From a virus (taxonomy: Duplodnaviria; Caudoviricetes), in the IMG/VR virus record IMGVR_UViG_3300042452_000781, positions 582-64,581 of that record: a stretch of DNA of 64,000 bases; one strand, given 5' to 3'. Of the stretch, positions 24,714 to 60,604 are shown piece by piece; position 1 is the first letter of the stretch; each line of letters starts with the position of its first letter. Position numbers and translations under genes: made by a program. The notes beneath the pieces are model-generated. The model was given only the letters and a program-made list of their open reading frames with translations. It was not told where the DNA came from and did no database searches.

Positions 24714-26261
24714 TTAGAATAGCAAAATTACTTTAACGTCTTCTTGTTGATTGATAGACCTTGGTGTAGATGGCCGGTTGTCAACATGAATAATATCTCC
24801 AGAATATTTCTTTACTTCGGGATTTGATATACCATTTGTAAAGTTTTGCCCCAGATAATTATTATTTATTGTATTATAGTCGCCGTTAAAAGTATTGTCA
24901 ATCGGTACAACACTAGAATTACAAATTAGATTAAGTGAACCGTCTTGGGTGGGGGTGCTAGTGAAGTTGTTTAAGTTAAAACCATAAGTTGGGGATGAAT
25001 TTTGGGAACCATCTCGATTAAACCCAGCTAGAGAACGGTCTTGCCAGTACCTTAAAACATTATTCGTGTAATCAAATGATGCAACTCTTCCAATAGCCGT
25101 TGCCCCCACTCCAATAGTCTGAGTAAAAGTTGAATTTGCCGGAAATGTACCAGAATTCAAATTTGTCCCTGAAACTTTAATTGCGGATAATGCACTGGCT
25201 CGGTCAGTATTTAATAAGGTTGTTGAGCCAAATGTTTGGGCATTTTTCACTATTCCAAATCTTGCGGTTTGATTTCCTGTAATAAAATCAGGATTTGTTG
25301 GGTCATTCTCAAATCTAGCATATAGCATCACCTTTGATGCACCAAGCTCTCGGTAAATATCGTAACCATGACCACCCTTTGGCGGAATGATTACATTAAA
25401 CACTGGAGTCAAAGTTCCAACTTGAATATTGACAGAACTCAAATCAACTGTACCATAGGTATAACCAGTTCCACCTTTAGTCACGGTTATAGAATCAACT
25501 TTTGAATCATTGTTGACGACAACTGTTGCTTCTGCACCATAACCATCTCCTACAATTTTAACTTTGCTGTAGGCAGTGTTTGGGGCACCAACGGACACTC
25601 CTCTATTCGCAATAGTGATAATTTTTATTTGTCCCCCATTGATGGCATTATTTCTTATTGGAGAGTATTCTGCATTTGTTTCCCAGTCCGATGGGACTGG
25701 AATATAATTTGCAGTAACAAACTTAATAATATCACTAGGTTTAATTGTATAAAGGTATTTCCATATGTACCCATCTCCACCATCTCCTGCACCTCTTGGT
25801 TCCAAATCTGTAAAAGTGGGCTCATTTAATGATGGTCTACCATTAGGATTTTCGGGGTCAGCTCCATTGAAAAGACAAATATAAACTTTATAGTCCTCAT
25901 TGACTACATAATATCCCGAAGCATAAAGGCTAGTTGCACCAGACGGTCTAGAAACATTAGTTCTGGTAATGTCATTACGATACATATCATAAATTGTACC
26001 AGATGCCCATGTTGAGTTTTTAATTATAAGTCTAACATTATTCGTATATATTTTTTTAAGTGCGATCATTGTATCCCAATAATCGTTCTCTTGGTCAAAA
26101 CTGTCTTTCGGGGCGGGCGGATTTGCATTCCAGGTGGATTGATACTCCGTTGCATTCGGAAGGCCAATAAAAGTATAATAGGTGTCTCTACCAGTAGACA
26201 CAGAATTTACAAAGTTCTTTGCCAGTGATATTCTATGTTGTTCAGTGACTATTGCAGACAT
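24714..26261 (-). CDS. gp8: baseplate wedge protein gp8
   Basis: MSAIVT, Y.FIGLP, YKVYICL.NG, DGYIWKYLYTI, PP.GGHG and EDVKVIL.F motifs. Confidence 0.92.
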   Translation of the reverse strand: MSAIVTEQHRISLAKNFVNSVSTGRDTYYTFIGLPNATEYQSTWNANPPAPKDSFDQENDYWDTMIALKKIYTNNVRLIIKNSTWASGTIYDMYRNDITRTNVSRPSGATSLYASGYYVVNEDYKVYICLFNGADPENPNGRPSLNEPTFTDLEPRGAGDGGDGYIWKYLYTIKPSDIIKFVTANYIPVPSDWETNAEYSPIRNNAINGGQIKIITIANRGVSVGAPNTAYSKVKIVGDGYGAEATVVVNNDSKVDSITVTKGGTGYTYGTVDLSSVNIQVGTLTPVFNVIIPPKGGHGYDIYRELGASKVMLYARFENDPTNPDFITGNQTARFGIVKNAQTFGSTTLLNTDRASALSAIKVSGTNLNSGTFPANSTFTQTIGVGATAIGRVASFDYTNNVLRYWQDRSLAGFNRDGSQNSSPTYGFNLNNFTSTPTQDGSLNLICNSSVVPIDNTFNGDYNTINNNYLGQNFTNGISNPEVKKYSGDIIHVDNRPSTPRSINQQEDVKVILLF

Positions 26262-32200: not shown

Positions 32201-35200
32201 AATACCTATGATTTTTAATGGTGATAAAATTATCAACAACATCTATAGATGCAAAAGTTCTAGGATTTATAAGAAGCCTTTGAGTTTCTTTACTATATAA
32301 AACCTTAATAATTTGGTCTTCTTGTGGTTGCACATCTACGATAATTTGGTCATTTGGGAGCAATTCCGAAACTGATTCAGTGAAAACTGAGACTAAATTT
32401 TTATCAACTTGACCGCTAGTTGATTCATAAGAGGTCAAAAGACTATGCTTCTTCCCTGTGCCGGTGTTGTTATAGTATAGAATTTTCGCAGCACTTGTAG
32501 TATTATATCCGACATAATTTCCAGTGGAACCTACTCCAACCTTTTCAGTGGAAAGGCCAACAAAATCGCCAGAATATGCCACCGCATATAATATTGAACC
32601 GTCTGCCAGTGGATAAGTTAAGGGGCCGCTCGTTACGCTAAAGGATGAGCCCCCATTGTTTTTATAGATTAACTCCTCTCCTGTTGTTAGTGCATGTTCA
32701 GGAATGTATATTGATCTTGTAGGGACATAAACACTCGTAGGGCCGATTCCTGGATTTGAAAAGAAGATCGTAGTTCCAATACCGACACCCACAGATTCTG
32801 TCGGGTTGAAGTAAATTTCTTTATTAATAGGAGAATTTGTAAATCCCTGTCTCCCTGTGGGTATGAAGAATTTTCTAGGAATTTCTACTATTTCTGTACC
32901 TGCAATATGAGAAGTTCCTAAAGTTCCTGCATATTGTCGCTCTACTAATAATCTTGAAGATTTCAGATCAACATTCAATACTTTTATCTTTTCATCTTCT
33001 ATTTGGAGTATATCATTTTCTCTAATATTTGGATAATTTAAATTTCCATATAGGTTAAGATATGTTATAGTTCCAGTAAAAAATGGAGCATCTAAGTTTG
33101 TATTTAATGTAAACTTTCGCCCTTCAACTGAGATTCTAAAGACTCTTTGTAACTGAGACTGATTGTGAGATAAATTTGAAATGCCTACTACATCATTATT
33201 TTGAAACAGGTGGGGCTCTTTGCAGAATCCTATAATTCCATATTGTGCATTTGGTGTAAATTCAACATCATAATATGAAGTGGAGGCAATGCTAATTGAG
33301 GAAACATTTTTCCCAATTATTGACGACACTTCTGCTGCCGCATTTATACCACCTGAAATATCACTATTGAATAATAATTTGTCTCCAATTTTATAATTAT
33401 CTCCACCCTCGGAAACTATAATCGCCTCAACCGAACCTGGAAGTATGCTCGTTATTGTTGAGGTTTGTTCATATTGGCTGAAAGGTTGAACGAGATATTT
33501 GTAGAAACTATTTTTGGAATTAAATGCAAACGGGGTTACATTTCTCAACCAACCAGTGCCATTTAAATCAATTAAATCTTGATTTGACGAGTAAATAAAA
33601 TTAAAATCTACAACTTTTGAATGGTATGTATTTCCTATAAAATATGGAAAGGCCGGCTTAAAATAATTTGCAAATGCCCCAACAGTTTCATATGCACTGT
33701 TAGAAATCGTTGAAAAATACGCATATGTTCCATTAGGAAATTCTGGTGTCACACAATAACGGCCATTGTGCTCATCTAAATCGCCTGTATTTTTGAATTG
33801 GTAATCGTCAACAAAAAATCCTTGGGGATATAGAGTTAGGTTCGGTCTGTTTGCGTCTATTACAATTTGATAAGAACTTTCTATACATTTTACGGCACCG
33901 CCTGTCTGTCTTTCATAACCATATGGTCCGTAAATTGGGCTTCCATCATATGCCCATCCTAAAATTGGGGAGTGAGAATCTGATACCTTTTCTGTTCCAT
34001 TTACGAACTGTAAATCAGGTTGATATGTTAAATTACCTGCAATATATTTCGATGCCGATAGGATTCCCCTCAACTTTCTTGGGGCATAACCATGAGTATA
34101 TTGTAACCCGTAGTCTGAATTTATACTCTTTGAGATAATTCCATCATCATCTACAATTTTATTTGTCTGAAATAGTCTTTCAATATTGTTAACAGTCCAT
34201 CTTTTTATATTGGCCCTAATTTTGGCACCATAACCGGCGGGGGTTACTGTTAAGTAAGTATTTCTTGGATCATAATCATAACCGGAATTGATAACTTTTA
34301 CTTCCTTTATCTCACCATTTTCAATAATGGGGGTTAATCTTGCACCTCTACCGGAACCAACAATAGTAATGTCTGGAGGAGAGTTGTATCCTACACCAGA
34401 ATTGATTACTAATACTTGGGTTATTTTCCCACCGGTTACAATTGCCTGTAATTGTGCCGATTCGCCACTCTTGAAGTTAATCGTTGGTTGCCTATTGTAA
34501 TTTAAAATGTCTTCTTGGCCATATTTTTTCCCGCCATTTTCAACTAATACTGAAGTAATTTCACCTCGGAAAATTGGCTGAATTTTGGCTGAAAAGTGAG
34601 TGCCAATTCCAGAAATTCCATCAATAGTTACAATAATAGGTTCATAGTTGAAATAATGTGTTCCAGTGCCTGAATTTGTAAGAGTTACGAATTGGCCAGT
34701 CTTAAAATAATAATCTGGAACCTTTGGTGCAACTTCTGACAATTTGAAGCTATTTTCATTTATTGCCGTAACGTAGTAACTCCTATTTGTGGCTAGTCCT
34801 GAAATTGGAGCGTCAGTATAACCTTCATAAACAATCAACTCACCAGTCTTAAAGTTATGCTCACCTTTATTGATTATATTTGTTTCAATACTAATTCCCC
34901 TATAGTCAACGGAAACTTTACGATTTTTATAGCCTTCTCCTGGATCAACTATATTAACGGATGAAACCTTTGTTTTAGGTGAAGCTGAAACGATTCTATG
35001 GTTAGCTATTCCACTTGGAATTAAGGTAATAGTGTTGATGCCCGAAATTGCATCAGAATAAATCTTATGCAATTTGATACTCTGGGCATCCACCGTAGAT
35101 GTAAAATATTGAGAATTTGTTGTTATACCAGTAACTTTGGTTAAACCATCTGGCTTGAAGATTACCTTTTCTGCATTGTTAAATCCGTGAAATGTACTAA

Positions 35201-45012: not shown

Positions 45013-47516
45013 TCAACCAATAGTTGGGGCTTTTAGAGCAATTTCTTGAGTAGAAACTGCAGCCAAATCTACACTTGGCCCATAAGTTTACCATTCTTAT
45101 GGAGTGGACTATATCATCACCATTGAAGGTGTCGGACGCTTATTCCTGTTATTAAGGGGACTAAACCCCTCAGGTAGTCTCTGAAGTTTCCTCAAGTGTA
45201 CTTGAGGCTTACCTGCTGATTGCCCAGTGTTTTGGAGGGTTTCCAGCAATTCATCCGATGTTTCATCTATCAATTACTTGATAGAGCCACTAGATTTTCT
45301 AATGGGAAGTTGTGGGCGTTTCTCTCATGTCGTTTGTTATCGTAAGAACTCTTTATTTCTTACTTCTTACTATCACTAGTAAGTCCAGACTATCTCTTCA
45401 TCCGTTCTGGATGCTGGGCATTCGTGGGTAGATTATTGTTGGAACTCACTACCTAGTCGTTAGACCTGCCGAAGAACCTATGTCCTCTTCGGATTGGTAC
45501 GGGATTGTCTACTTGAGAGTTTCCCCGTTTAACCCAGTTTCGTCAAGGAATATTCCTATTCCAGGGTGACTACATTTAAGAAATCACTTCCATTCCAAGC
45601 CCAGCTTTGTTCAATACGTCCGACCAGGTATTAATTACCCGACCTTGACTATCTTGGATAGATTGATTGAAATTAAATCCGTTCAGGTTGAATGCCATAG
45701 TGCTAACACCAAGAGCAGTAAACCAGATGCCCACAACAGGCCATGCGGCGAGGAAGAAGTGCAGCGAACGGGAGTTATTAAAGGACGCATATTGGAAAAT
45801 AAGACGACCGAAATACCCGTGAGCGGCAACAATTGAATAAGTTTCTTCCTCTTGGCCAAACTTATACCCATAATTTTGAGATTCATTTTCGGTTGTTTCA
45901 CGAACAAGGCTGCTAGTGACTAACGAGCCATGCATCGCTGAGAAAAGACTTCCTCCGAATACTCCCGCCACACCCAACATGTGAAAAGGATGTTGAAGGA
46001 TATTGTGTTCTGCCTGGAATACCAACCATTAGGCAGAACGGGGACCTATGTTTTCATAGGGATTGGACTATCTCATAATTAATAGAAATTTCTATTAATC
46101 TCGGGCGCTGATTCTGGTTATTAAGAGGGCTATACCTCTCCAGTAGTCTCTACACTTTACATGAGTGTACTCAAGTCTTAGCACGGTATTGGCATATCTA
46201 TAAGACTTAGCTTTCACCGTTTTCACCCGATTTATACTACACATTGGTTTAGTTTATGTAGTTAAAGGTTCCTGAAATGCCAAGGGGCATCGCATCTGAA
46301 AAAGAACCTTGACCGAAGGGATAGATTAGGAATACGGCAGTAGCAGCAGCAACGGGTGCGCTGTAAGCAACCATAATCCAAGGACGCATTCCGAGACGAT
46401 AAGAAAGTTCCCATTCACGGCCCATGTAGCAGTAAATACCAATCAGGAAGTGAAATATGATGAGTTGAAATGGACCCCCATTATAGAGCCATTCATCAAG
46501 ACTTGCAGCTTCCCAAATTGGATAAAAATGCAGCCCAATAGCATTAGAAGAAGGAACAACAGCACCAGAGATAATGTTGTTACCATACATTAGTGAACCA
46601 GCAACTGGTTCACGAATCCCGTCGCTTACATCTAACAAACAACCATATCAATAGACTTAGGTTGTTTCTGTTGGCGAATTCGATTTGCTCTTTTTGCGTT
46701 TTCAACTCTTCCACCGTTTTCTACCCACTCTTTCCAAGTTTGTAGATGAGAAATACATTCGGTTATTCTTTCCCCCCGTCTTACTCCCATATAAGGGAGT
46801 ATTTTTTGTAGAATGAATAAGACCTTTTCTTTTTCTCCGATGTGAAGGGTATAAACTTGTTTCCCTGTTACCGTTTTTCTTGATGGAGAAAAGTAAGATT
46901 TATCTAAAAGTTTGCTCAACCTTTGGATAATATCTTCATCAACCATAGAAATTTTGATAAAGGGTGCTGGTGGTGTTTTAGAAATTTCATAGCGGTCTTT
47001 GGAACGATCATCTATTCCAAAGTATCCTTCACCTTCTAATAAACCAGCAATCCAAGCAATATCAGTTTCAGTTAAATTTAACATTTTGGTTTGCGTCTTC
47101 TGTATTATTTATACAGCATTAGCAACAAAAAGTCAACAGTAGATGTGTGGACTATATCTTCACCCTTTATAGAAGGGGCTGGGCACTTAAACCTGTTATT
47201 AAGGGGACTAAACCCCTCAGGTAGTCTCTGAACCTTCCCCAAGTGTACTTGAGGCTTGGCTGCTGATTGCCTTTCGGTTTCCAGCAATTCACCCAGTTTC
47301 GTCAATACTCTTACGAGTAAGGGACACCGATTAGTTAATGTCTACAGGAGGTGCGCCAATAAAAGCGATAATAAAAACTGAAGTAGCAGCAAGAAGGCAA
47401 GGAATCATAAGAACTCCAAACCATCCCACATATAAACGATTGTTCGTTGAAGTAACCCAGGAACAAAATTGCTCCCAGAGATTACCCCCCGAGCGTGTAG
47501 CAATTGAAGCGGTCAT
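45013..47516 (-). CDS. psbA: photosystem II D1 protein, five exons: 47516-47338, 46624-46256, 46026-45583, 45330-45302, 45071-45013 (359 aa spliced)
   Basis: The exons join in frame (179+369+444+29+59 = 1080 nt) to give a full D1 with standard numbering (D61, Y161, H190, H198, H332, E333, D342, A344). Confidence 0.97.
45072..45301 (-). mobile_element. group I intron 4 of psbA (after nt 1021), ORF-less, 230 nt
   Basis: P1 CCAU/GUGG; P10 AAAUCUA/UAGAUUU; CAGAGACUA and GAUAUAGUCC core; terminal G. Confidence 0.92.
45331..45582 (-). mobile_element. group I intron 3 of psbA (after nt 992), ORF-less, 252 nt
   Basis: P1 GUGAU/GUCAC; P10 AUGU/ACAU; AACGACUA and GAUAGUCU core; terminal G. Confidence 0.9.
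46027..46255 (-). mobile_element. group I intron 2 of psbA (after nt 548), ORF-less, 229 nt
   Basis: P1 CUACAU/GUGUAG; P10 ACCAAU/GUUGGU; AGAGACUA and GAUAGUCC core; terminal G. Confidence 0.92.
46625..47337 (-). mobile_element. group I intron 1 of psbA (after nt 179), contains a LAGLIDADG ORF
   Basis: 5' exon ends in U; P1 GACAU/GUGUC; P7 elements CAGAGACUA and GAUAUAGUCC; terminal G at 46625. Confidence 0.93.
46632..47084 (-). CDS. intron-encoded single-motif LAGLIDADG homing endonuclease
   Basis: [12 protein letters not shown] motif; lies 3' of the intron core; TATAAATA late promoter at 47106-47113. Confidence 0.88.
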
Positions 47517-47529
47517 ATTTGAAAAAAAG

Positions 47530-47630
47530 GTAACAAATATTCGCGGGGACGAATGTGATTATTATTTCTTCTCTCCCCCAGAGAAGATATGAGAGACGTA
47601 TTTGATGTGCAAAGTCTCGGTAAGCACGGG
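47530..47630 (-). ncRNA. structured psbA 5' leader, PhotoRC-II-like motif
   Basis: Minus strand GTGC..CCGAGAC..GCAC...GTCTC (pseudoknot pairing), then the hairpin TCTTCTCT-GGGGG-AGAGAAGA whose loop can pair with a downstream CCCC; resembles cyanophage psbA leaders as I recall them. Confidence 0.7.
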
Positions 47631-47664
47631 AGCAAGTTAGGAATCCCTGACCTGCTTGTGTATG

Positions 47665-50578: not shown

Positions 50579-52069
50579 TTATAGAGATTTAGGCGGAACA
50601 TTCACCATGGTTAGGTGTTGTTTAGCGCGGGTAACTAGCACGTAGCATAGATTATCCTCCTGCCCAAGTTCCCACGGTTGCTTAGCCCATTTGCTAGGAG
50701 AATATGTGTTCATTCCTAGAGCAAACACTCTATTCCATTCTCTACCCTTTGCCTTATGAATTGTAGATAGCGTTAGAACTTGTTGTTTGCCGGTTTCGGT
50801 ATCACCAAACAGCTCCCGAATCTTACCAATTAATATATCCAAAGAATCCGAATCCTCGCACTGATATATAAAAACCTTAAGAGTTTCCGCCTGATCTTCT
50901 ACAACCTGGCACCTAGAATCGTTGCCCTTTTCTTTATGCTTGGCGATCTCTTTAGTCGCCCATTCTTCTAACCGAATCTCTAATTCTCCAACATTCTTTA
51001 CAGTCTTCCAGCGCATGGCTAGTTTAATCAATCCCTCACCGATTGAACGGCCTTCTACTCTACAGGCAACCGAGTTACGGATCAATTTGTATGCTAACTC
51101 CACCAAAGGTTTAGTATTACGACAGATGATAACATCCTGGGGTTTGGATATCTTAATAAGATCACCAATCTCACAAGCATCAACTATACCATCAGGTGCA
51201 GTTTCGTGAGCCTCAATATGATTGACCCAACGATTGGCCACCTTAACTATATTCTTAGGGCACCGATAAGTGACCGTAAGAGGCAGAGTTTCTGCCTTGA
51301 ATTCTGCCCGAATGTTATTCAGTGATTCGCTATCCGCCCCAGTAAATCCATAAATCGCCTGGCAAGGATCGCCTACAGCGATTAACCTACCATTAGGCTT
51401 TAACATCATTTTAACTAGAGCACGTCTGGAGGCATTAGTATCTTGCGCCTCATCTAACAAAATATAATCATACTGCCAAATCTTCATTCTATTAAGAATA
51501 GGAAGATATATCATATCACTAAAGTCTACAATTTGTGTCAGTGAATTGCTCACCTTAAGAAGATATTGTGCAGCATCTATTCCTTGTTCTTCACTTATAT
51601 TGTTGGGGAGCGTTTCTGCTATATTATAATGATTTAACATCTCTAGCCAATTATCTAGATTATTCTCCAATACTGCTCCTATTCCACACTCTTTAGCCAT
51701 TGCGGCTGCGGATATAACAAACGACTGTAGAGTTTCATATTCACCAGTGAATTCTCTACGGGCAAGTTCCCGTAGTTTGTTGCCGTCAACCTTAACGCGA
51801 CTTACGGCCCTACGAATAGCACCAAAACCGAAACTATGAAGTGTTCCTACCTTAATAGGAAGATTAAATGGGGCAATTTTAGATTCTATCTCAGTTGCGA
51901 TTGACTTGTTAAATGCACAGAATGCCCCGTTGCCTTGAGCAACTTTAGACATTTCAATCAAGGTTGTTGTTTTGCCGGCACCAGCTACCGCTTCCAGAAC
52001 GAGATTGGCGCGGGAAGATGTAACAAATTGAACAGCGGCGGTTTGCTGGGAGGAGAGTGAGCGAGCCAT
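50579..52069 (-). CDS. SF1 UvrD/Rep-like helicase
   Basis: AVAGAGKTT (Walker A), LLDEAQD, VGDPCQAIYGF.GA, TYRCP, STIHKAKGREW and YVLVTRAK motifs. Confidence 0.93.
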   Translation of the reverse strand: MARSLSSQQTAAVQFVTSSRANLVLEAVAGAGKTTTLIEMSKVAQGNGAFCAFNKSIATEIESKIAPFNLPIKVGTLHSFGFGAIRRAVSRVKVDGNKLRELARREFTGEYETLQSFVISAAAMAKECGIGAVLENNLDNWLEMLNHYNIAETLPNNISEEQGIDAAQYLLKVSNSLTQIVDFSDMIYLPILNRMKIWQYDYILLDEAQDTNASRRALVKMMLKPNGRLIAVGDPCQAIYGFTGADSESLNNIRAEFKAETLPLTVTYRCPKNIVKVANRWVNHIEAHETAPDGIVDACEIGDLIKISKPQDVIICRNTKPLVELAYKLIRNSVACRVEGRSIGEGLIKLAMRWKTVKNVGELEIRLEEWATKEIAKHKEKGNDSRCQVVEDQAETLKVFIYQCEDSDSLDILIGKIRELFGDTETGKQQVLTLSTIHKAKGREWNRVFALGMNTYSPSKWAKQPWELGQEDNLCYVLVTRAKQHLTMVNVPPKSL

Positions 52070-52147
52070 AGGGGTTTCCCTGGATTACTCAGACATTCTA
52101 GCACACTGGCAGCGGAACCGCAACATTTTCTTAAATTATATTAAAAG

Positions 52148-52190
52148 GCAGGGTTAGCGTGCCGTTTTGTATAAACGCGATTCGTTCGCT
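52148..52190 (-). ncRNA. putative sRNA repeat element A, copy 1 (inverted relative to the others)
   Basis: AGCGAACGAATCGCGTTTATACAAAACGGCACGCTAACCCTGC on the minus strand, 20 nt after a TTGACA-N18-TAGAAT promoter. Confidence 0.55.
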
Positions 52191-52318
52191 TCTATTCTGT
52201 TGTCTAATCTATTCTAGCAACTGCCGGTGGAATATGTCAAGCCTTCTAACCATTAGGATTGCTTATCACCCAATAAACATAATAAAAGGCCCCCAATAAG
52301 GAGGCCCATTAACTATAC

Positions 52319-52555
52319 TCACATATTCTGAATATCAATATCAAGAGCTAAAGTAGTGTTAGGCTGCTTAAGTCTAATAATATCCCCCATAACTTCGCGC
52401 CGGCAAACTACACCAGTCCAACCCATAATTGACTTCGAGAGTCTAACAATTTGTATATCAGTTAGACAATCTGTTCTGATAATCTCCTGCCTGCTATAGC
52501 AGTCGTTAACACTGTTATCAATAAGGCCGACTTTTTCAACTATAATCTTAATCAT
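52319..52555 (-). CDS. early hypothetical protein
   Basis: ORF between a promoter hub and a hairpin terminator. Confidence 0.7.
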   Translation of the reverse strand: MIKIIVEKVGLIDNSVNDCYSRQEIIRTDCLTDIQIVRLSKSIMGWTGVVCRREVMGDIIRLKQPNTTLALDIDIQNM

Positions 52556-52709
52556 GGCCGGGGTGTTGCTTTGGGACCTTCATATCCTACATCATCGGAT
52601 GCCCTACAACCGACCAACCATTGATGATCTTATCTTATGTGTCCGATAAGCAACGCTAATGTTCCAAACTGCTCCAACCATGCTAGGATAGTTTCAAGAA
52701 CAAAATAAG

Positions 52710-52752
52710 AGCGAACGACTCGCGTTTATAGAAAATGCCACGCTAATCCTGC
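52710..52752 (+). ncRNA. putative sRNA repeat element A, copy 2
   Basis: 43-bp core, 20 nt after TAGGAT. Confidence 0.55.
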
Positions 52753-52808
52753 TCTTAACTAATAATATAAAGATATAATAAAAGGCCCCCCAATAAGGGG
52801 GCAATTAA

Positions 52809-53210
52809 CTATGCAAGATCGCTCACAACTTCTGTACCATCCAGATAATGTGGAACACCGGCAATATAATCAATCGGCTCAAAGTTTCCGACTACATCCC
52901 ACGTTTCGGTGGTGAGAAAATTGTTTAGGGCAAACTCTGCAAACTTCATTGCGCCATCATTAGTCTTGAACTGCCCCAGATAATAATTGCATTCAGTAGT
53001 TGGGCCATCTGAAGTCATCTCAACCTTTACAAATAAGATTCCTAATTCTCTACCAGAACCTACCGTAAAGTTGATATAATACTGGAAGTCGTCAAATGCT
53101 GTTCGTATCGTATTGCTGTAAATGCCCCCTACAATCTGTTCTTGATTGTTTAGATAATTCCATACCAAACTTTGGTCTAGACCGATAGCCATAAACTTGT
53201 TGTTAATCAT
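52809..53210 (-). CDS. early hypothetical protein
   Basis: 133 aa; own TTGACA/TATTCT promoter and terminator. Confidence 0.75.
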   Translation of the reverse strand: MINNKFMAIGLDQSLVWNYLNNQEQIVGGIYSNTIRTAFDDFQYYINFTVGSGRELGILFVKVEMTSDGPTTECNYYLGQFKTNDGAMKFAEFALNNFLTTETWDVVGNFEPIDYIAGVPHYLDGTEVVSDLA

Positions 53211-53348
53211 GGCCGGGGGTGTTGCTTTGGGACTCTTTAAGAATAAACCGGTTTGGCTAGTCTGTCAAGCCTTGACCGATAAGCGTTTCTTATCGTTGAA
53301 TAAACATAAGAAAAGGCCCCCGATTGGAGGACCTTAACTATACCGAAA

Positions 53349-53963
53349 TCATCCAGGGAATTGTGTAGACAAGAAAGGAACTTCCGTCCAGATTCCTATA
53401 ACCTTTGTATCATCCTGAAAGGGTTTAACTATAGACCAAACTTTATTGCGACTGAATAGATTACAGCCACAAAAATGCATAAGAATTCTGTTTAACCTTT
53501 CCTTAGTAGATTTGGGACCTCCACTTACACGCAGAATTACAACTTTACGCTTGAAATCTACTGCTGCGAACAGCTTTTTCTGGTGGTAAATGTTTAGAGC
53601 ATCTTCACTACATTTGTGATTGAAGTTTCTACCCGTTAGCACTACAGCATCGGTACGGTAGTTATAGTAATTCTGATGCCGGATTGCCTCAATCAGACTG
53701 CGAATGGCTGGAGATTTAGAAGGATAATTATTGGCATCATTAAATATATCAATCATTGCTTGATATTGTTTAGCCACTAAAATGGCCTCATAATAAGCAG
53801 TAAAGGCTACCTCGCCTGTTTTTTTGACTCTAGTATATCCTGCTGCCCTAATAAGTTCTGCACGGGAAGCATAATCGCTTCCTTTCTTGTTGTGCTCAAG
53901 TAGAGCTAATCCCGTAAGTCTTTCTTGTGTTGTGTAGTCAATAACAAGCTGTTGGCTGGTCAT
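53349..53963 (-). CDS. cyAbrB N-terminal-like domain fused to a domain paralogous to 60605-60913
   Basis: True start probably MTSQQ (53963), downstream of the promoter; LTG.ALL...K...R.E....GY..V.K.G....T.YY.AIL.AK pattern; C-terminal TKERLNRIL. Confidence 0.65.
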   Translation of the reverse strand: MTSQQLVIDYTTQERLTGLALLEHNKKGSDYASRAELIRAAGYTRVKKTGEVAFTAYYEAILVAKQYQAMIDIFNDANNYPSKSPAIRSLIEAIRHQNYYNYRTDAVVLTGRNFNHKCSEDALNIYHQKKLFAAVDFKRKVVILRVSGGPKSTKERLNRILMHFCGCNLFSRNKVWSIVKPFQDDTKVIGIWTEVPFLSTQFPG

Positions 53964-54117
53964 TTGTTTACTGGCAACCTGCCAGTGATTGGTTGACTTG
54001 CTTAGTATAGGGGCAGTTCTGGCTGATACTGGCTGCTGGTGTGCCAGTTGTAGAAGTGTCTGAGAGGCACCCACAAGCGTCTACAATGGCCTTAGAATAC
54101 TCTTAACAACCTAGGAC

Positions 54118-54160
54118 AGCGAACGACTCGCGTTTATAGAAAATGCCACGCTAATCCTGC
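54118..54160 (+). ncRNA. putative sRNA repeat element A, copy 3
   Basis: AGCGAACGACTCGCGTTTATAGAAAATGCCACGCTAATCCTGC, 19 nt after TAGAAT. Confidence 0.55.
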
Positions 54161-54215
54161 TTGTTTATAAAAATATAAGAATATAAGAAAAGGCTCCCGA
54201 AAGAGCCTCTATAAG

Positions 54216-54485
54216 TTATGCTAATGCTCCAAGATTGCCTAACTGTATGGCTATCTTATGGGCGGCAATTCGTCGGTCGTTTAACATAAAAGTTGTCCGA
54301 CCTTTGGAGATCCTACAACTAATTTTAATATCAGTAAATCGCCCCTCTCCGGCATAACCTTGGCAGTGTAAGTCTGCCTCGCCTATAGCCCTTCCAGGCA
54401 AACCCATATTAGAAAGGGCTAACGTTTCAACATCCTTTCGCCGTTGGAAGTTCTGATCAAAGCTGGCGAGAGTGTAGGAAGCCAT
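54216..54485 (-). CDS. early hypothetical protein
   Basis: 89 aa cassette gene. Confidence 0.7.
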   Translation of the reverse strand: MASYTLASFDQNFQRRKDVETLALSNMGLPGRAIGEADLHCQGYAGEGRFTDIKISCRISKGRTTFMLNDRRIAAHKIAIQLGNLGALA

Positions 54486-54623
54486 TAGACTTGAGCGGTT
54501 GACTTGTTTATCCTAGAGGCAGTTCTGGCCGTTACTAGCTGCTGGTGTGCCGGTTGTAGAAGTGTCTGGAAGGGGCCTAGAAGAGCCTGCAAGGTGCTTA
54601 GAATACTCTTATCACCATAAGAC

Positions 54624-54666
54624 AGCGAACGACTCGCGTTTATAGAAAATGCCACGCTAATCCTGC
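54624..54666 (+). ncRNA. putative sRNA repeat element A, copy 4
   Basis: Core identical to copy 3, after TAGAAT. Confidence 0.55.
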
Positions 54667-54724
54667 TTGTTTATAAAAATATACAAAAAAAGAAGAGAAC
54701 CGAATCTCTTCTTATATCTTTATA

Positions 54725-55036
54725 TCAGTGCTTAGAACTCCAGGCTATAATCTTATTGGCTGCTACTTCAATAGAATCTGTATTACATTTACGAAACTTT
54801 TCTGTTTCAGACCTATTGAATTGTTCAATCTTACCTGCTCCGATATGAAACATAGCATATCGGGAATTATGATAAATCCCGTTAATCCACTGTTCCATTG
54901 GATCTAACGAAACCTTGACGATTAGACTGGCATTTTCTTCTCCACCTAGAGTGGATCTTTCCACATAATAATAAGGAAAGATTCCACTCAATAGTTCAAT
55001 CAATTTGGTCTCGTCTTCGGTGGATGGGATGAACAT
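54725..55036 (-). CDS. early hypothetical protein
   Basis: 103 aa; STLGG and W.NGIY.NSRY motif; own promoter. Confidence 0.75.
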   Translation of the reverse strand: MFIPSTEDETKLIELLSGIFPYYYVERSTLGGEENASLIVKVSLDPMEQWINGIYHNSRYAMFHIGAGKIEQFNRSETEKFRKCNTDSIEVAANKIIAWSSKH

Positions 55037-55111
55037 TTGTATGGTTCTGGTGACTTTCTAAGAATAACAGGCTTGACCGTGGTTGTCAAGCCCCTGAACG
55101 ATAAGCGTTTC

Positions 55112-55300
55112 TTATGCCAAGCAGAAGTCAATAGTAGTTTTTACTCCATTGTTTACTTCAATCAACTTTAATGGTCCATCTTTTTTATCTAAGAAAGACC
55201 TAGCCTTTTCATAGGTCTTAAACTTACCTAAACAAGTGTCAAGAGTTGGGCCGAATTGATTGAAAGATGACCCTGGTCTTACTACTTCATAGGTTGACAT
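55112..55300 (-). CDS. early hypothetical protein
   Basis: ATG at 55300; the stop lies inside the next palindromic box. Confidence 0.65.
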   Translation of the reverse strand: MSTYEVVRPGSSFNQFGPTLDTCLGKFKTYEKARSFLDKKDGPLKLIEVNNGVKTTIDFCLA

Positions 55301-55439
55301 AATCAATCCTCAGTGGTGGTTGACTTTTTAAGAATAAACCATCTGCAAGGGTATGTCAAGCCTTGAATGATAAGCATTGCTGATGGCCCGAAGGCTTGAC
55401 ATACATTAAGAGGTAGAATAATCTACCTCTTATTAGTTT

Positions 55440-55916
55440 TTATTGAAATTTACCCCTTGCAACCTGTAGTTCAAGAATAAACTTATCAAGTTCTTCTTTT
55501 TTGTAGAAGTATATATTACAACTGCGGCCAGCATCATTCCAAACCTCAACGCTAACAATCGTTTGAACCCCTTCTGTAACCGGGTTGCCATTAGTTCCAC
55601 CATATTCTCGCTTAATATAGTAAACTTCATAAGTATCTAAACCAGAGAGCGGAAGAATTGGCGTGTTATTGTAGATTTCTTCCCGTTCTTTGCGTCTCTG
55701 TTCTTTATAATCTTCTACTTGTTTGGCCACTTCTTCTACATTTTCGGTTATACCAACCTTTTTAATTGCACCATTAAGATCATGTTTGGGAAAATTAAAT
55801 GCTGCAGCAGAGTGAACACTAGTATCTGTATCTTGGGCCAGAAGCCTTAGGATACTTGTTGGGGTGTTTCCATTCTGGAGATCGATAATGTCCTGAATCT
55901 GTTCAGTGGTGGCCAT
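55440..55916 (-). CDS. early hypothetical protein with one LRV-like repeat
   Basis: NGNTPTSILRLLAQD.D.SV repeat unit near the N-terminus. Confidence 0.7.
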   Translation of the reverse strand: MATTEQIQDIIDLQNGNTPTSILRLLAQDTDTSVHSAAAFNFPKHDLNGAIKKVGITENVEEVAKQVEDYKEQRRKEREEIYNNTPILPLSGLDTYEVYYIKREYGGTNGNPVTEGVQTIVSVEVWNDAGRSCNIYFYKKEELDKFILELQVARGKFQ

Positions 55917-56053
55917 TTGATCTTGTTGCTTTGGGACTTTTTAAGAATAAACCTTTTTAGTCAGCCTGTCAAGCCTTGAATGATAAGCACTGCTGATGGT
56001 CCGAAGGCTTGACATACTGACTTCTCTGCTGCTATACTTTAAGAAAGAAAATA

Positions 56054-56096
56054 AGCGAACGACTCGCGTTTATAGAAAATGCCACGCTAATCCTGC
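56054..56096 (+). ncRNA. putative sRNA repeat element A, copy 5
   Basis: Identical core, 15 nt after a near-consensus TTGACA-N18-TATACT promoter. Confidence 0.6.
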
Positions 56097-56157
56097 TCTT
56101 AGATAAAAATATAAGAATATAAGAAAAAGCCTCCAATAAGGAGGCATAAGAATATGT

Positions 56158-56451
56158 TTATCGATCAATAATAAATCCTATTTTGTGTACCCCATCAGGA
56201 ATTTCTCCAAGTATAACTTCATATTTGTAAATACCGTTATTTTCATTACTTACCTCGTGAAATGGAATCTCAACTTCTAATAATTCGTCGGGATCAATAC
56301 AATCAATTCTAATATCATCTCCAAAATACTCGGCGGTTTCCTCCGGTAAGGAAACCTCCATTTCTTTACAAAATTGTAACACTTTAATGTGTTTTTGGTG
56401 CTCCAGATCTAAAGGTGAGCGAAAACCCTTTACACTGATTGACACTGACAT
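56158..56451 (-). CDS. early hypothetical protein
   Basis: 97 aa cassette gene. Confidence 0.75.
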   Translation of the reverse strand: MSVSISVKGFRSPLDLEHQKHIKVLQFCKEMEVSLPEETAEYFGDDIRIDCIDPDELLEVEIPFHEVSNENNGIYKYEVILGEIPDGVHKIGFIIDR

Positions 56452-56533
56452 TGTTTTGATTGGTTGGGGACTTTTTAAGAATAACAGGAGTTTAGGCGGT
56501 TGTCAATGGTTGATTGATAAGAACTGCTTATCG

Positions 56534-56755
56534 TTACCAATTCGCTGCAATTTCCTTGGCATTATCGCCAAGGAAACTATAACAAGCATCGGGAACTGGC
56601 CTACCCAAAATTTGACAACAACGCACCAATTCATCGCCGTCTGCCTGTATCCTGACCATGCCGTAGCAATTTACATTTAACCATTTCTTGGGGTCTTCGC
56701 TGGGAGTGGCTGGAATGTAGGCCATGGCGCCATTCAAATCACGGGCAATTAACAT
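56534..56755 (-). CDS. early hypothetical protein
   Basis: 73 aa cassette gene downstream of a promoter hub. Confidence 0.7.
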   Translation of the reverse strand: MLIARDLNGAMAYIPATPSEDPKKWLNVNCYGMVRIQADGDELVRCCQILGRPVPDACYSFLGDNAKEIAANW

Positions 56756-56895
56756 GGTTGCGGAGATCTGTTGACCTGTTCAGTATAGGGGCAGTTCTGG
56801 CTGATACCGGTTGGTGGTGTGCCAGTTGTAGAAGTGTCTGAGAGGCGTCTGGATGGGGCTGTAATGGCGTTAGAATACCTTTAACACCATAAGAC

Positions 56896-56938
56896 AGCGG
56901 GCGAACCGCGTTTATAGAAAATGCCACGCTAACCCTGC
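56896..56938 (+). ncRNA. putative sRNA repeat element A, copy 6
   Basis: Variant core AGCGGGCGAACCGCGTTTATAGAAAATGCCACGCTAACCCTGC, after TAGAAT. Confidence 0.55.
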
Positions 56939-57035
56939 TCTTAGATAAAAATATAAGAATATAAGAAAAGGCCCCCGAAGGAGCCTTTATATTACCAATT
57001 ATTACTAAACCTTATTTTATATACACCAGACGAGA

Positions 57036-57347
57036 TCAAGATGGGCCGTGCAGGTTAGGCGTAAACCACGGGAACCACCCGTCAATAAAAAAGTTGTACG
57101 TGTGACATTTGAAATCTGGGCCTACAATAACCCAATGTCCGTCCGGATTACATCCTGGTAGCCCAATTTCAGTCCAATATATCCAGGCTCTCCTAGTTGT
57201 TCTCTTCGTGAATTCAGATGGCTCTACACCTACCTTTACCATAACATCTTCGGTGGGTAAATCTGCAATCTGGGCCCATATGGGGCAACCAGTCTTTGGT
57301 GCGGATTCAATTGGCTCCATTTTTTGGCCGTTAACGGTGATAGTCAT
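57036..57347 (-). CDS. early hypothetical protein (PIESAPK.G motif)
   Basis: 103 aa cassette gene. Confidence 0.7.
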   Translation of the reverse strand: MTITVNGQKMEPIESAPKTGCPIWAQIADLPTEDVMVKVGVEPSEFTKRTTRRAWIYWTEIGLPGCNPDGHWVIVGPDFKCHTYNFFIDGWFPWFTPNLHGPS

Positions 57348-57487
57348 GGTGGTTTGGATCGGTTGACTTGTTCAGTATAGGGGCAGTTCTGGCTGATACC
57401 GGTTGGTGGTGTGCCAGTTGTAGAAGTGTCCTAGAGGCGTCTGGATGGGGCTGTAATGGCGTTAGAATACTCTTAACAACCTGACAC

Positions 57488-57530
57488 AGCGTAAGAAGCG
57501 CCTAAACACAAACGGGCACGCTAATCCTGC
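57488..57530 (+). ncRNA. putative sRNA repeat element A, copy 7 (subtype 2)
   Basis: AGCGTAAGAAGCGCCTAAACACAAACGGGCACGCTAATCCTGC, after TAGAAT. Confidence 0.55.
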
Positions 57531-57583
57531 TCTTTTTAAGAATATAAATAATACCAAAAAACCTCCAATAAGGAGGCTATTGT

Positions 57584-57910
57584 TTATACTGACTGTAAGA
57601 ACTGTAAAGACTTAACTAAATCTCTTTTTACCCATGTTGGTAGATTATTATACTGATCACTTTCAATAATATCTTCATGGATGATTAGACATCCTTTGAT
57701 ATAACAATTACCTTTCCGACCTTTCATTTCATTTACATTATTTACGGTTATTGCGGCTTGCATATTCCAAAAGAAAGACGAAACATTGTCGGCTAATTTC
57801 TGGCTGTTACTACCCTTAAGGTTTAGCCTATTAGCTAGTCTCCTGCCCGTCATTGTTGAAAAATGACGTAGAAACGGGATCTGTTCATTGGTGGGGAAGG
57901 GGCAGATCAT
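57584..57910 (-). CDS. early hypothetical protein
   Basis: 108 aa cassette gene. Confidence 0.7.
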   Translation of the reverse strand: MICPFPTNEQIPFLRHFSTMTGRRLANRLNLKGSNSQKLADNVSSFFWNMQAAITVNNVNEMKGRKGNCYIKGCLIIHEDIIESDQYNNLPTWVKRDLVKSLQFLQSV

Positions 57911-58053
57911 CGGCTTGCCTGGGGTGGTTGACTTGTTTAGTATAGGGGCAGTTCTGGCCGTTACTGATTGGTGGTGTGCCAGTCTTAGAAGTGTCCTAGA
58001 GGCACGTCTGAAGCGTCTGCAATGGCCTTAGAATACTCTTAACAACCTAGGAC

Positions 58054-58096
58054 AGCGAACGACTCGCGTTTATACAAAACGGCACGCTAATTCTGC
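58054..58096 (+). ncRNA. putative sRNA repeat element A, copy 8
   Basis: Variant core after TAGAAT. Confidence 0.55.
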
Positions 58097-58155
58097 TCTT
58101 AACTAATAATATAAAGATATAAAAAAAGACTCCCGAAGGAGCCTTATTAAATCAA

Positions 58156-58575
58156 TCAACAAGAAGGTTGAAAGTATATCTTATCGGTTGGAGTCATAAT
58201 TGTAGTAATAACTCCATCATCACTTACTGTAGTCTTTTCCTCTAACCAATAAAATGCAGTTTCAAGTCTGCCACCCTTTCGTATAAGTTCTCTTTCCTCT
58301 TCAGTTAGATTATCCCACTTGTTTAATACTTTACGACCATCCAGGCCGATTGTAAGTAATAGGGTGTGCTTATCAAGCATTGATTGCCATTTAGCATAAG
58401 CATAAGACGTTAATGCCTCTTGCTTATATTTTGGGAGCCTCTTAAAGGCTGGCTCCGCGTATAGATTATTAAGGCCATCTTTGGCATGGTTTAGATTTTG
58501 TCTGTAACTTACTGCCGCAGATATGGCTCCATTGATTCTGGCCTGATAGTTTGAATAAACATCGGTGGTGGCCAT
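58156..58575 (-). CDS. early hypothetical protein
   Basis: 139 aa; own promoter and terminator. Confidence 0.75.
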   Translation of the reverse strand: MATTDVYSNYQARINGAISAAVSYRQNLNHAKDGLNNLYAEPAFKRLPKYKQEALTSYAYAKWQSMLDKHTLLLTIGLDGRKVLNKWDNLTEEERELIRKGGRLETAFYWLEEKTTVSDDGVITTIMTPTDKIYFQPSC

Positions 58576-58658
58576 GGTGGTTTGTGGGGCTGGGGGACTT
58601 TTTAAGAATATCAGGAGCTTGAGAGGTTGTCAAGCCCCTGAACGATAAGCAGTTCTTA

Positions 58659-59105
58659 TCAGTATACAAAGGGTAGAATCTTATCACGTAGGGCATAAAT
58701 TTCATCGTCTAATTCTTTGATTTTATTAATTGTGGCTTCAACTTCATCTAGTGTGTATTCTGTATATTCTTTCGGTTCTTTAAGACTGCTAAGATCATCA
58801 AAATTAATCCTTGCAATATCGAAATGTTTAGTTGCTCTTTCGGTTCTGTGTTCTGATACTGAATACCTATAAGAAACTTCTGCAGATATACTACAAGAAT
58901 AAAAGTGAAATATAATAGAACACCCGTAACCAGCTCTGAGAATGTCCATCTCATCACTGATCTTCTTAATAAAAGTTCTATAAGGAGTGGTCTTGATTAC
59001 CTTCTTACCGATATAGGGTTCTAGAATTGTGTTTATCTTATCGTTAATTTCCCTGGCCAGTCTGTTGACTAAATTGGTGGCTTCAACTTTGGCAGCGAGT
59101 GTCAT
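58659..59105 (-). CDS. early hypothetical protein
   Basis: True start probably MTLAAK (59105); the longer track ORF reads through promoter DNA. Confidence 0.7.
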   Translation of the reverse strand: MTLAAKVEATNLVNRLAREINDKINTILEPYIGKKVIKTTPYRTFIKKISDEMDILRAGYGCSIIFHFYSCSISAEVSYRYSVSEHRTERATKHFDIARINFDDLSSLKEPKEYTEYTLDEVEATINKIKELDDEIYALRDKILPFVY

Positions 59106-59190
59106 GGTGGTGTGGTTGTGGGCAGTTGACTTTTTAAGAATATCAGGAGCTTGAGAGATTGTCAAGCCCCTGAACGATAAGCATTTCTTA

Positions 59191-59499
59191 TCATTCAAAA
59201 ATGATGTTTTCGTCTAAAGAATTAAACCCGGTTAATTCCTTAAAAGAATTCTTAAGATACTTAATGAGTGTAGTGATATTTTTACCCTTAAACTGTGCCA
59301 GATCAATTATATCATCGCCATACTCAATCTCATCGGGAATCTCTAGAATTTTGATCTTACCTGTTACAATATGAATAGGATAGAAATACCATCTGCTACC
59401 CATAAACTCGCTTCGGTTTTGAGCATCTGAAACTGTAGGGAATTCCCCTTCAGTTACCTTTTCACCGTCAAGAGCGAGACAGACAAGTTTGTAAGACAT
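59191..59499 (-). CDS. early hypothetical protein (MGSRWYFYP motif)
   Basis: 102 aa cassette gene. Confidence 0.75.
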   Translation of the reverse strand: MSYKLVCLALDGEKVTEGEFPTVSDAQNRSEFMGSRWYFYPIHIVTGKIKILEIPDEIEYGDDIIDLAQFKGKNITTLIKYLKNSFKELTGFNSLDENIIFE

Positions 59500-59520
59500 T
59501 GTGGTGGAGTGGTTGACTTC

Positions 59521-59940
59521 TTAAGAATACCCGGTTTTTAAGGGCTTGTCAATGGTTGAATGATAAGCAGTTCTTATCCAATATGAAATATCAATTTCCT
59601 TTAGTGTTTCAAGAATATTACCGGGAACTAATACTTCTACACTATCAGCATAAAATACCTTAAAGGCGCGATCTATTAGGGCAATTTCTAACGGCCCCAT
59701 AAGATAGGGAGCACAACCAATCATAACACCTTCACACTTATCTCTATGGCCACCGTCATAAAGAAACCTATAATCACTTGCAATGTAGGCTATATTTTTA
59801 GCCCTTTGTATTATGGGAAGCTCGCTAAGTGTAAGAAGTTTTCTAACCTCTTGGAGCATATCATCAATGTGAATATCAACAATTCCTGTGGCTATTTGTT
59901 CTGCGGTTGCATCGTGTTGAGTTAGATTGATAATGGCCAT
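59521..59940 (-). CDS. NLTQH-family phage protein, Csx20/Csx15-like, C-terminus apparently damaged
   Basis: IINLTQH.AT.EQ, MIG.APYLM.PLE.AL and VFYA motifs; the ORF tail runs through the next promoter. Confidence 0.55.
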   Translation of the reverse strand: MAIINLTQHDATAEQIATGIVDIHIDDMLQEVRKLLTLSELPIIQRAKNIAYIASDYRFLYDGGHRDKCEGVMIGCAPYLMGPLEIALIDRAFKVFYADSVEVLVPGNILETLKEIDISYWIRTAYHSTIDKPLKTGYS

Positions 59941-59964
59941 TTGATTGGAGGTAAGTTTATAAAG

Positions 59965-60195
59965 TTACGGTAGTTCATCCTTAGTTTTGATAAGTTGATT
60001 CAGAATATAATTAAATGCTCGTTTCATATCTTCGGGTGATACCTCTACTTCCACTAACTTTTCTTCGGTATCAAAACAATAAGAACATGTATTACAAGAA
60101 TACCGACGCACGGTTACATCACCAGATTCTAAAAGCTTATGTGTTGTTAGAAGATGGTTACGGTCGTAACCATTACAGATTGGACATTGGGCCAT
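59965..60195 (-). CDS. zinc-ribbon protein (NrdR-N/Ogr-like)
   Basis: CPIC...RRYSCNTC...F.TEE motif. Confidence 0.75.
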   Translation of the reverse strand: MAQCPICNGYDRNHLLTTHKLLESGDVTVRRYSCNTCSYCFDTEEKLVEVEVSPEDMKRAFNYILNQLIKTKDELP

Positions 60196-60333
60196 TTGAG
60201 GCGGGGCAGGGGGACTTTTAATAATATACCATTTTCAGGTTCGCTGTTGTGGTGGTGGGTCAGTTGTAGAAGTGTCTGGAAGGCACCTAGAAGAGCCTGT
60301 AGGGGGCCTAGAATACCTTAGACAACCTAGGAC

Positions 60334-60376
60334 AGCGTAAGAAGCGCCTAAACATAAACCGGCACGCTAATCCTGG
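60334..60376 (+). ncRNA. putative sRNA repeat element A, copy 9 (subtype 2)
   Basis: AGCGTAAGAAGCGCCTAAACATAAACCGGCACGCTAATCCTGG, after TAGAAT. Confidence 0.55.
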
Positions 60377-60464
60377 GCTCTTATAAAAATATAACGAATA
60401 CAAAATAAGACTCCCCCGAATGAGAGAGTCTTATCTTAATGGATTAGGGCATGTTGAGGGCCTC

Positions 60465-60531
60465 TTATTGATTGGGGGAAGCAAGAATTGTTAGAGTTTC
60501 TGATGGAGTGTTGTGAGTGGATTAGAGCATG
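60465..60531 (-). pseudogene. remnant of an LRV-repeat gene
   Basis: Minus-strand frame HNTPSETLTILASPNQ*; the DNA gcaagaattgttagagtttc matches the repeats in 49794-50198; it sits behind an intact promoter. Confidence 0.5.
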
Positions 60532-60604
60532 ATGGGAACCTCTCTTTCTTCTTAAGAATAACAGGGGCTTGAGAGTTTGTCAAGCCCTTAATGATAAGTG
60601 TTTC

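Follow-up and report, generated by a model that had tools for sequence, protein, structure and literature searches.

The DNA analysed here (hereafter the window) is a stretch of 64,000 nucleotides (nt), positions 582 to 64,581 of the 64.6-kb IMG/VR record IMGVR_UViG_3300042452_000781, and derives from a large freshwater cyanomyovirus. Its region between 52 and 60.5 kb harbours nine copies of a short, promoter-linked element which, judged by sequence comparison, is a real, conserved and unannotated family found in phages only. In the Rfam scan of the window, PhotoRC-II and four matches to group I introns came up at 45-47.6 kb. Helicase comparison places the window closest, among cultured phages, to Synechococcus phages B3 and B23, two Kyanoviridae of 245 kb from a subarctic lake, and the DNA sequencing runs containing the region came from freshwater and lake metagenomes. 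Every sizeable open reading frame (ORF) in the ORF list of the window is placed on the minus strand, hence the eight element copies located on the plus strand face the early genes. Among the window ORFs, two have a family match, namely a UvrD-like helicase and a phrog_3308 protein at 54725-55036 on the minus strand. The features of the locus are given below, R1 being a covariance model built from 16 near-identical copies of the window and two close contigs.

50579-52069, minus strand: gene for a UvrD/Rep-like superfamily 1 helicase (phrog_1967, E 1.3e-108; Pfam UvrD-helicase 5.4e-24, UvrD_C 9.7e-16)
52118-52192, minus strand: element copy 1 (R1, 74.2 bits), core 52148-52190, in the helicase leader and co-oriented with the genes, no hairpin close downstream
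52211-52240, minus strand: promoter of copy 1, TTGACA-N18-TAGAAT with TGn ahead of the -10, 11/12 matches
52319-60195, minus strand: block of small early-type ORFs from the ORF list, their 3' ends and terminators facing the elements
52708-52782, plus strand: element copy 2, antisense, -10 TAGGAT at 52684-52689, extended (TGc), terminator ahead at 52785-52802
54116-54190, plus strand: element copy 3, -10 TAGAAT at 54093-54098, terminator ahead at 54189-54210
54622-54696, plus strand: element copy 4, -10 TAGAAT at 54599-54604, terminator at 54690-54713 scoring on both strands
56052-56126, plus strand: element copy 5, promoter TTGACA-N18-TATACT at 56009-56038, terminator ahead at 56129-56145
56894-56968, plus strand: element copy 6, -10 TAGAAT at 56871-56876, terminator ahead at 56967-56988
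57486-57560, plus strand: element copy 7, variant interior with the hairpin closed by U·G, -10 TAGAAT at 57463-57468, terminator at 57560-57578 scoring on the plus strand too
58052-58126, plus strand: element copy 8, -10 TAGAAT at 58029-58034, terminator ahead at 58126-58145
60332-60406, plus strand: element copy 9, variant interior ending CCTGG, -10 TAGAAT at 60309-60314, terminator ahead at 60401-60438

The first-pass annotation of this DNA had pointed to nine copies of a 43-bp core, AGCG-N27-CGCTAAYYCTGS. This pattern matched exactly nine times, with cores starting at 52148 on the minus strand and at 52710, 54118, 54624, 56054, 56896, 57488, 58054 and 60334 on the plus strand, and gave 0 matches in 100 dinucleotide-preserving shuffles. 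The same nine are the sole copies in the 64.6-kb record, and a search of the window with covariance models returned no further ones. The 27-nt interior is of fixed length, as had been stated; the two subtypes into which it had been divided were not sustained, however, six sequence variants being counted. The conserved unit exceeds the 43 bp, about 75 nt being alignable (alignment A2, mean column identity 84%), and its conserved portion includes ACACUUAnCCUGC. The units lie within intergenic cassettes of 250-300 bp that have two upstream types.

The six type A cassettes have about 120 bp more in common, between the element -10 and the next gene (approximately 53950-54090, 54470-54600, 56760-56870, 57350-57460, 57920-58030 and 60200-60310). 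Read on the gene strand, this shared part contains ACAACTGGCACACCACCAACCGG and, some 20 nt further on, TATACT, after which comes the ATG. A similar motif, ACTGGCACACC, was located upstream of some element promoters in relatives, in the orientation of the element; the ACAACTGGCACACCACCAACCGG/ACTGGCACACC motif may represent a second promoter class or an operator.

In agreement with the initial annotation, the copies share no conserved ORF. A small peptide was discarded as a candidate product, since the GTG-started frame in the ORF list is open in just 2/9 copies and the AUG frame of the family consensus is lost in other subtypes. A gene-strand promoter within the core (TATAAA) was likewise rejected, being missing from the variant copies 7 and 9.

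Each copy is preceded in its own orientation by a -10 hexamer situated 15-20 nt upstream of the core (TAGAAT in seven copies, TATACT in copy 5 and TAGGAT in copy 2), and two copies, 1 (52240-52211, minus strand) and 5 (56009-56038, plus strand), have the complete TTGACA-N18 promoter, all of which bears out the initial description. The linkage extends to the wider family, in which TAnnnT was found 13-24 nt upstream of the hairpin described below in 101 of 118 distinct copies, with a peak at 19-20 nt, and a TTGACA with at least 5/6 matches at 16-18 nt spacing in 22 of 118; the opposite strand, taken with the same geometry as a control, gave 41 and 1, respectively. The TGn extension of the -10 was recorded for 48 of 117 copies. 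When the sequences of the 17 copies scored as lacking a -10 were inspected by eye, most were seen to have one further upstream, behind an inserted segment. That the element travels with its own promoter, as had been proposed from the single inverted copy, was seen in the window and in about 40 related records, promoter and orientation both being kept upon inversion.

Upstream of the promoters, an inverted repeat with the look of an operator, CAGTY-N3-8-RNYYG, lies approximately 30-50 nt before the -10. It was counted in 17 of 113 distinct upstream sequences, for example in the relatives L027 (around 25650-25680), L090 and L072, compared with 1.2 in shuffles. In the relative L012 (7263-7532), two elements stand back to back and diverge from a common upstream region (CCCATAAGCACTGCTA and its complement); the ATAAGCA-N2-GCTRAT motif of this pair recurs upstream of window copies 1, 2 and 5.

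Eight of the nine window copies are antisense to the genes, and each of them is placed directly downstream of the terminator of a minus-strand gene, so that a transcript of the copy would meet this hairpin head-on. Intrinsic terminators between 52 and 60.5 kb show strong polarity for the minus strand; of the ten strong ones on that strand, eight directly adjoin an antisense copy, and a ninth is situated about 95 nt upstream of copy 1. The A-rich tracts noticed earlier after each copy are present in all nine and are accounted for as the complement of the U-tract of the convergent terminator. Across the family, orientation relative to neighbouring ORFs was opposite in 89, the same in 7 and unclear in 22 of the 118 copies, and 33 of 41 copies have, after an AU-rich tail, a G+C hairpin whose start is no more than 8 nt from the model end. 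Hairpins after the elements in L012, L013, L099 and other relatives are in many cases of one family with the loop GAGTATAAYWAACTC (e.g. GGCCCAGAGTATAACTAACTCCGGGCC), which makes the terminators themselves a repeated module.

The inverted copy 1 does have an inverted promoter, as noted before; it does not, however, occupy the slot of a protein gene and sits instead in the 218-bp leader of the helicase gene, which extends from the terminator at 52307-52287 to the helicase start at 52069, copy 1 ending 49 nt before that start. Six loci include the N-terminus of the helicase, and in 3 of these a co-oriented copy, without terminator but with its own promoter, stands ahead of the gene. The unit that is conserved and moves consists of the promoter, the hairpin and the CCUGC motif, and the terminator joins it only when the unit faces a gene.

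The hairpin that characterises the family comprises 4 bp rich in G+C and a loop of 4-5 nt, loops being 88% purine. Pairing was kept in 100% of 140 cells, 99.4% of 172 and 99.7% of 310 in three alignments. The closing pair in the 310-cell alignment is GC 48, AU 22 and GU 8, and the innermost pair GC 37, CG 36, UA 3 and AU 1. The stem sequence differs outright among subtypes with pairing kept (GCGG/CCGC, ACGC/GCGU, AGCC/GGCU, AGAGC/GCUCU), and the covariation score exceeded those of 500/500 shuffles and of all slid controls. Alignments A4 and A5 contain 7 and 8 G·U or U·G pairs, respectively, and a single non-pair each; since such pairs would be A·C mismatches on the other strand, they argue for an RNA on the element strand. 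Both the covariation and the G·U pairs are consistent with an RNA-level element on the copy's own strand. The hairpin is followed by an A-rich linker and then by an unpaired motif with the consensus (G/C)AC(A/G)CU.A.CCUGC, the terminal CCTGC being present in 102 of 114 distinct elements.

The fold initially put forward for copy 3, which is reproduced by single-sequence folding of that copy, did not hold for the family. Its outer AGCG/CGCU stem is uninformative on covariation, being invariant throughout the window type, and is absent from divergent relatives; for the inner GCGUUU/AAAUGC helix, pairing amounts to 76% and does not exceed that of shuffles; and the UAGGA/UCCUG and ACAA/UUGU stems appear in single-sequence folds only and were seen by eye to be disrupted in copies 4, 6 and 7. 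A second helix, between CCUG and the bases before ACAC, was considered and rejected as a conserved feature, since inspection of the rows by eye showed that the partner often puts A opposite C. The GCTCTT reported to end six copies does follow CCTG in five of them and is shifted by two bases in copy 9; as a conserved element it was abandoned, being confined to the window type. Window copies have the boxA-like UGCUCUUA after CCUGC, and divergent copies have at this place CAUGAAAU, AAGUUAAU or ACUUUUAU, which are AU-rich and unrelated.

Alignment, covariance modelling and searches of Rfam and viromes, as suggested with the first-pass annotation, revealed a real family conserved in freshwater cyanophage contigs. 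Model R1 found 18 diverged copies in two contigs with an approximately 70% identical helicase, and with a second covariance model, R2, the count was 6 copies for B3 and 7 for B23, two cultured phages whose isolation has been reported (PMC7171214). The six B3 sites span 115689-120718 and are all on the minus strand; five of them are in unannotated gaps that follow plus-strand genes, 30-70 nt past the stop codon, and the remaining one overlaps a hypothetical ORF of 38 codons. The announcement of the B3 and B23 genomes makes no mention of the element. A degenerate pattern scan of IMG/VR returned 45 stretches, and R2 confirmed 104 copies in 37 of 39 new loci, i.e. in 34 further contigs, some of them 225-258 kb long. 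In total the family comprises 39 further viral contigs together with B3 and B23, at least 41 viral records from lakes, with roughly 150 copies overall and 6-12 per genome.

Outside this group, R2 had no match at E up to 1 in S-CRM01, S-PM2, Syn9 and P-SSM2. The scan of cellular genomes (185,579 species) gave 31 unrelated single pattern sites, none of them cyanobacterial, and the model confirmed 0/31. The earlier impression that the element is no known Rfam family proved right, as the window scanned at the gathering threshold gave only the group I introns and PhotoRC-II, situated elsewhere. For the region 52000-60600 the best match in Rfam 15 at E up to 10 was at chance level (28 bits against a cut-off of 60), and Rfam had no match at the elements in the loci of three relatives. 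Near and distant DNA searches of the phage collection yielded nothing useful.

With moderate confidence we favour the reading that these units form an independently transcribed family of non-coding RNAs, partly antisense to the 3' ends of early mRNAs. The units have an own promoter, no conserved ORF and a terminator-like 3' end, as small RNA genes do, the U-tract being weak on the element strand. The comparison establishes the anatomy, its conservation, the promoter linkage, strand-specific covariation and phage-only distribution, whereas transcription, the 3' end and the function are inferred as follows. The unit would start with a promoter of the host's sigma-70 type, which has TAnnnT as its -10 and in many copies also the TGn extension or a TTGACA -35, pass through an A/C-rich leader of 12-13 nt into the 4-bp G+C hairpin with its purine loop of 4-5 nt, continue over the A-rich linker and the unpaired (G/C)AC(A/G)CU.A.CCUGC, and end with an AU-rich tail of about 30 nt and the G+C hairpin that terminates the convergent early gene. 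Because eight of the nine units point against the genes, these could give rise to non-coding RNA only, and because the promoters are of the sigma-70 type, the RNA would probably be early. If stopped at the shared hairpin, it would measure about 105-125 nt and not the 65-75 nt envisaged at first, the conserved element being about 75 nt long; its last 40-55 nt would then pair without a mismatch with the neighbouring early mRNA at its 3' end, and equally with any transcript that reads through.

The result would be a high-dosage early RNA family in which the hairpin and CCUGC module, common to all copies, is free to engage one shared partner, be it a protein that binds small purine-loop hairpins or an RNA, and in which the copy-specific 3' part pairs in cis with early transcripts and thus sets their processing, stability or read-through. 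Phage-encoded small RNAs are few, and multi-copy, individually promoted ones are not known to have been described in a lytic phage; our literature search for such RNAs in cyanophages found none. If the units are transcribed, they would offer a handle on how cyanomyoviruses control early transcripts, through a family tied one-to-one to the terminators of early genes, and the presence of this family in two cultured phages with hosts in a culture collection makes direct study feasible.

Several points weigh against this interpretation. Six of the nine window copies have the -10 only, and on the gene strand TAGAATA reads as TATTCTA. As a terminator, the shared hairpin is good in the direction of the genes and weak in that of the element: on average, 5.95 A are found among the 8 nt ahead of the stem, compared with 3.44 T among the 8 nt behind it, at least five T follow the stem in 10 of 59 copies only, and 2 of the 8 antisense copies in the window score as terminators on their own strand. 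The RNA may consequently not end at the shared hairpin. The structural support concerns a single short helix, to which the alignments used for counting had been fitted; a palindromic protein-binding DNA site could covary alike, with solely the G·U pairs favouring RNA, and recent duplication or gene conversion may account in part for the likeness of copies in the same genome. No RNA sequencing run containing the region was found, nor did our literature searches yield a transcriptome for this phage clade. Within the window, the search for a complementary target of the conserved motif elsewhere found none, returning the copies themselves and one site at chance level.

A more far-reaching version, which we regard as quite unlikely, would see in the element a clade-specific RNA device by which large freshwater cyanomyoviruses time their early genes. 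A separate convergent small RNA would belong to each early transcription unit, and the shared hairpin and CCUGC would bring one host or phage factor, for instance an RNase or RNA-binding protein, to early mRNAs at their 3' ends; in another variant, the module would make the antisense polymerase terminator-proof. The whole early gene set would thereby be shut off or stabilised together. In T4, such a role in the control of early genes is filled by proteins, and cyanomyoviruses are not known to encode the T4 early-to-middle switch proteins.

The weakness of the terminators on the element strand turns into a substantial, if unlikely, rival the explanation that the element is a promoter-proximal leader or antitermination module of the kind of lambda nut, HK022 put or the rrn boxB-boxA leader. 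Hairpin and linear motif would in that case make RNA polymerase resistant to the hairpin ahead, and transcription would yield a long antisense RNA that covers the upstream early gene and silences it, causes collision, or shields the mRNA from RNase E as a duplex; from a co-oriented copy, read-through helicase mRNA would result. Such a module agrees with the fixed distance of the hairpin from the -10 (peak 19-20 nt), with a hairpin size and purine-rich loop (4-5 nt, 88%) resembling those of the protein-binding boxB hairpin, with the co-oriented copies that lead into the helicase gene without a terminator (3 of the 6 loci holding its N-terminus), with the weak U-tracts on the element strand (at least five T in 10/59 copies) and with the boxA-like UGCUCUUA after CCUGC in window copies. 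Furthermore, antisense RNA that shields mRNA from RNase E was reported for phage-infected Prochlorococcus (PMC3113571). On the other hand, the boxA-like stretch is not conserved and gives way to CAUGAAAU, AAGUUAAU or ACUUUUAU in divergent copies, many relatives have U-rich tails after the hairpin, and no N-, Q- or LoaP-like protein came up, none having been searched for.

A cassette acting at the DNA level only is, in our judgement, decidedly unlikely. It would be a terminator/promoter unit like the promoter-early stem-loops (PeSLs), serving recombination and gene shuffling or a DNA-binding protein, and its outward promoter would be incidental or merely a roadblock to read-through. Within a hyperplastic block of small ORFs, the elements do stand exactly where terminators adjoin promoters, in the manner reported for the PeSLs of T4-like phages (PMC4122927, PMC2839356). 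Copy 4 and the copies at L002:8844 and L003:12959, which occupy one slot, have the same downstream terminator and different upstream promoter types, which may point to recombination breakpoints at the element in this slot, and a subset of copies has the operator-like inverted repeat upstream (17/113 against 1.2 in shuffles). This account is contradicted by the retention of promoter and orientation in the inverted element, by 7-8 G·U pairs against one non-pair, by canonical -35/-10 pairs numbering 22 against 1 on the other strand, and by a stem sequence that changes freely while paired, unlike a sequence-specific protein site. Finally, the units might provide R-loop primers for T4-style replication origins, the promoter transcribing into an AT-rich unwinding region where the hybridised RNA primes DNA synthesis. 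An AT-rich tract of about 30 bp does follow the promoter in every copy, and one copy lies beside a helicase gene; however, the crowding of nine to twelve of these sites into 8-10 kb, almost all in the same direction, an AT-rich tract already explained by the U-tract of the convergent terminator, a helicase that is UvrD-like and not UvsW-like, and a conserved hairpin and CCUGC left unexplained render this proposal extremely improbable.

As to the remaining features of the window, the small ORFs are served by nine minus-strand TTGACA-N17-TATTCT promoters within 53240-60583 (e.g. 55061-55093, 58605-58641, 59137-59173 and 60555-60587), an early promoter family of the gene strand with its -35 inside a G+C stem-loop (GGGCTTGACA...TCAAGCCC). 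The group I introns are located on the minus strand at 45080-45313, 45366-45632, 46044-46314 and 47126-47347, the PhotoRC-II match at 47554-47639, and the ORF 46632-47084 (minus strand) has weak LAGLIDADG matches under the Pfam cut-offs. The segment 45080-47639 (minus strand) is probably a multiply interrupted psbA region; as many as four introns would be out of the ordinary. At 26280-37550 on the minus strand, one ORF of 3756 amino acids is found among other large minus-strand ORFs, and this block is presumably structural.

The closest known concept, by analogy, is the PeSL, a composite terminator/promoter cassette of T4-like phages (PMC2839356, PMC4122927). Both are short conserved cassettes repeated in a T4-like phage near a terminator stem-loop and a sigma-70 promoter, between the small early ORFs of a hyperplastic region, and the module shuffling between close relatives that PeSLs show may be reflected in the one slot of the element compared above. 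The PeSL, however, is described as a terminator plus a promoter serving a co-oriented downstream gene, whereas the promoter of the element points against the genes (8/9 window copies and 89/118 family copies are opposite), and the element has in addition a covarying hairpin and a conserved linear motif. The closer PeSL analogue in the window is the nine-copy TTGACA-in-stem-loop/TATTCT promoter family of the gene strand.

With lambda nut, the rrn boxB-boxA leader and HK022 put, the element shares a G+C hairpin with a purine loop and a linear stretch between promoter and terminator: the covarying 4-bp stem with its loop of 4-5 nt, held at a fixed distance from the -10, is boxB-like, and window-type copies carry UGCUCUUA. 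It departs from these systems in that the boxA-like stretch is restricted to the window type and not family-wide, no cognate protein was identified for the element, and most copies have nothing to express past the terminator. A mimic of clustered regularly interspaced short palindromic repeats (CRISPR) was dismissed, as were a ToxI-like antitoxin, a self-cleaving ribozyme and a tRNA-like structure, all on the grounds that there is no Rfam match, that the copies are dispersed and separately promoted, and that the hairpin has only 4 bp.

The RatA/txpA and SR4/bsrG pairs of Bacillus subtilis prophage regions are type I toxin-antitoxin systems with convergent antisense small RNAs that overlap at the 3' end. 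As in the present case, a small RNA gene there converges on a small protein gene, with a 3' overlap of the two transcripts through the shared terminator; unlike the element, which is multi-copy and has a conserved 5' module outside the mRNA overlap, their RNA is specific to one toxin mRNA, and the ORFs neighbouring the element have no known toxin function. Among cyanobacterial RNAs, PMC6778093 describes for Yfr1 an unpaired C-rich motif between two stem-loops, with UCCU critical, and for the related Yfr2 family multiple copies, up to nine in one Synechococcus genome. A conserved unpaired C-rich motif between two stem-loops is thus common to Yfr1/Yfr10 and the element; the motif itself differs, Rfam gave no match to a cyanobacterial small RNA, and the element was found in no cellular genome (0/31 pattern sites confirmed, none cyanobacterial). 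CfrI of cyanophage S-PM2, as summarised in a review (PMC12197685), is likewise a non-coding antisense RNA encoded by a cyanomyovirus; it is about 225 nt long, linked to psbA and a homing endonuclease and, unlike the element, present in a single copy, and the element model has no match in S-PM2. The element hence belongs neither to the Bacillus-type antisense small RNAs nor to Yfr1, and looks like a phage small or antisense RNA of a previously undescribed family.

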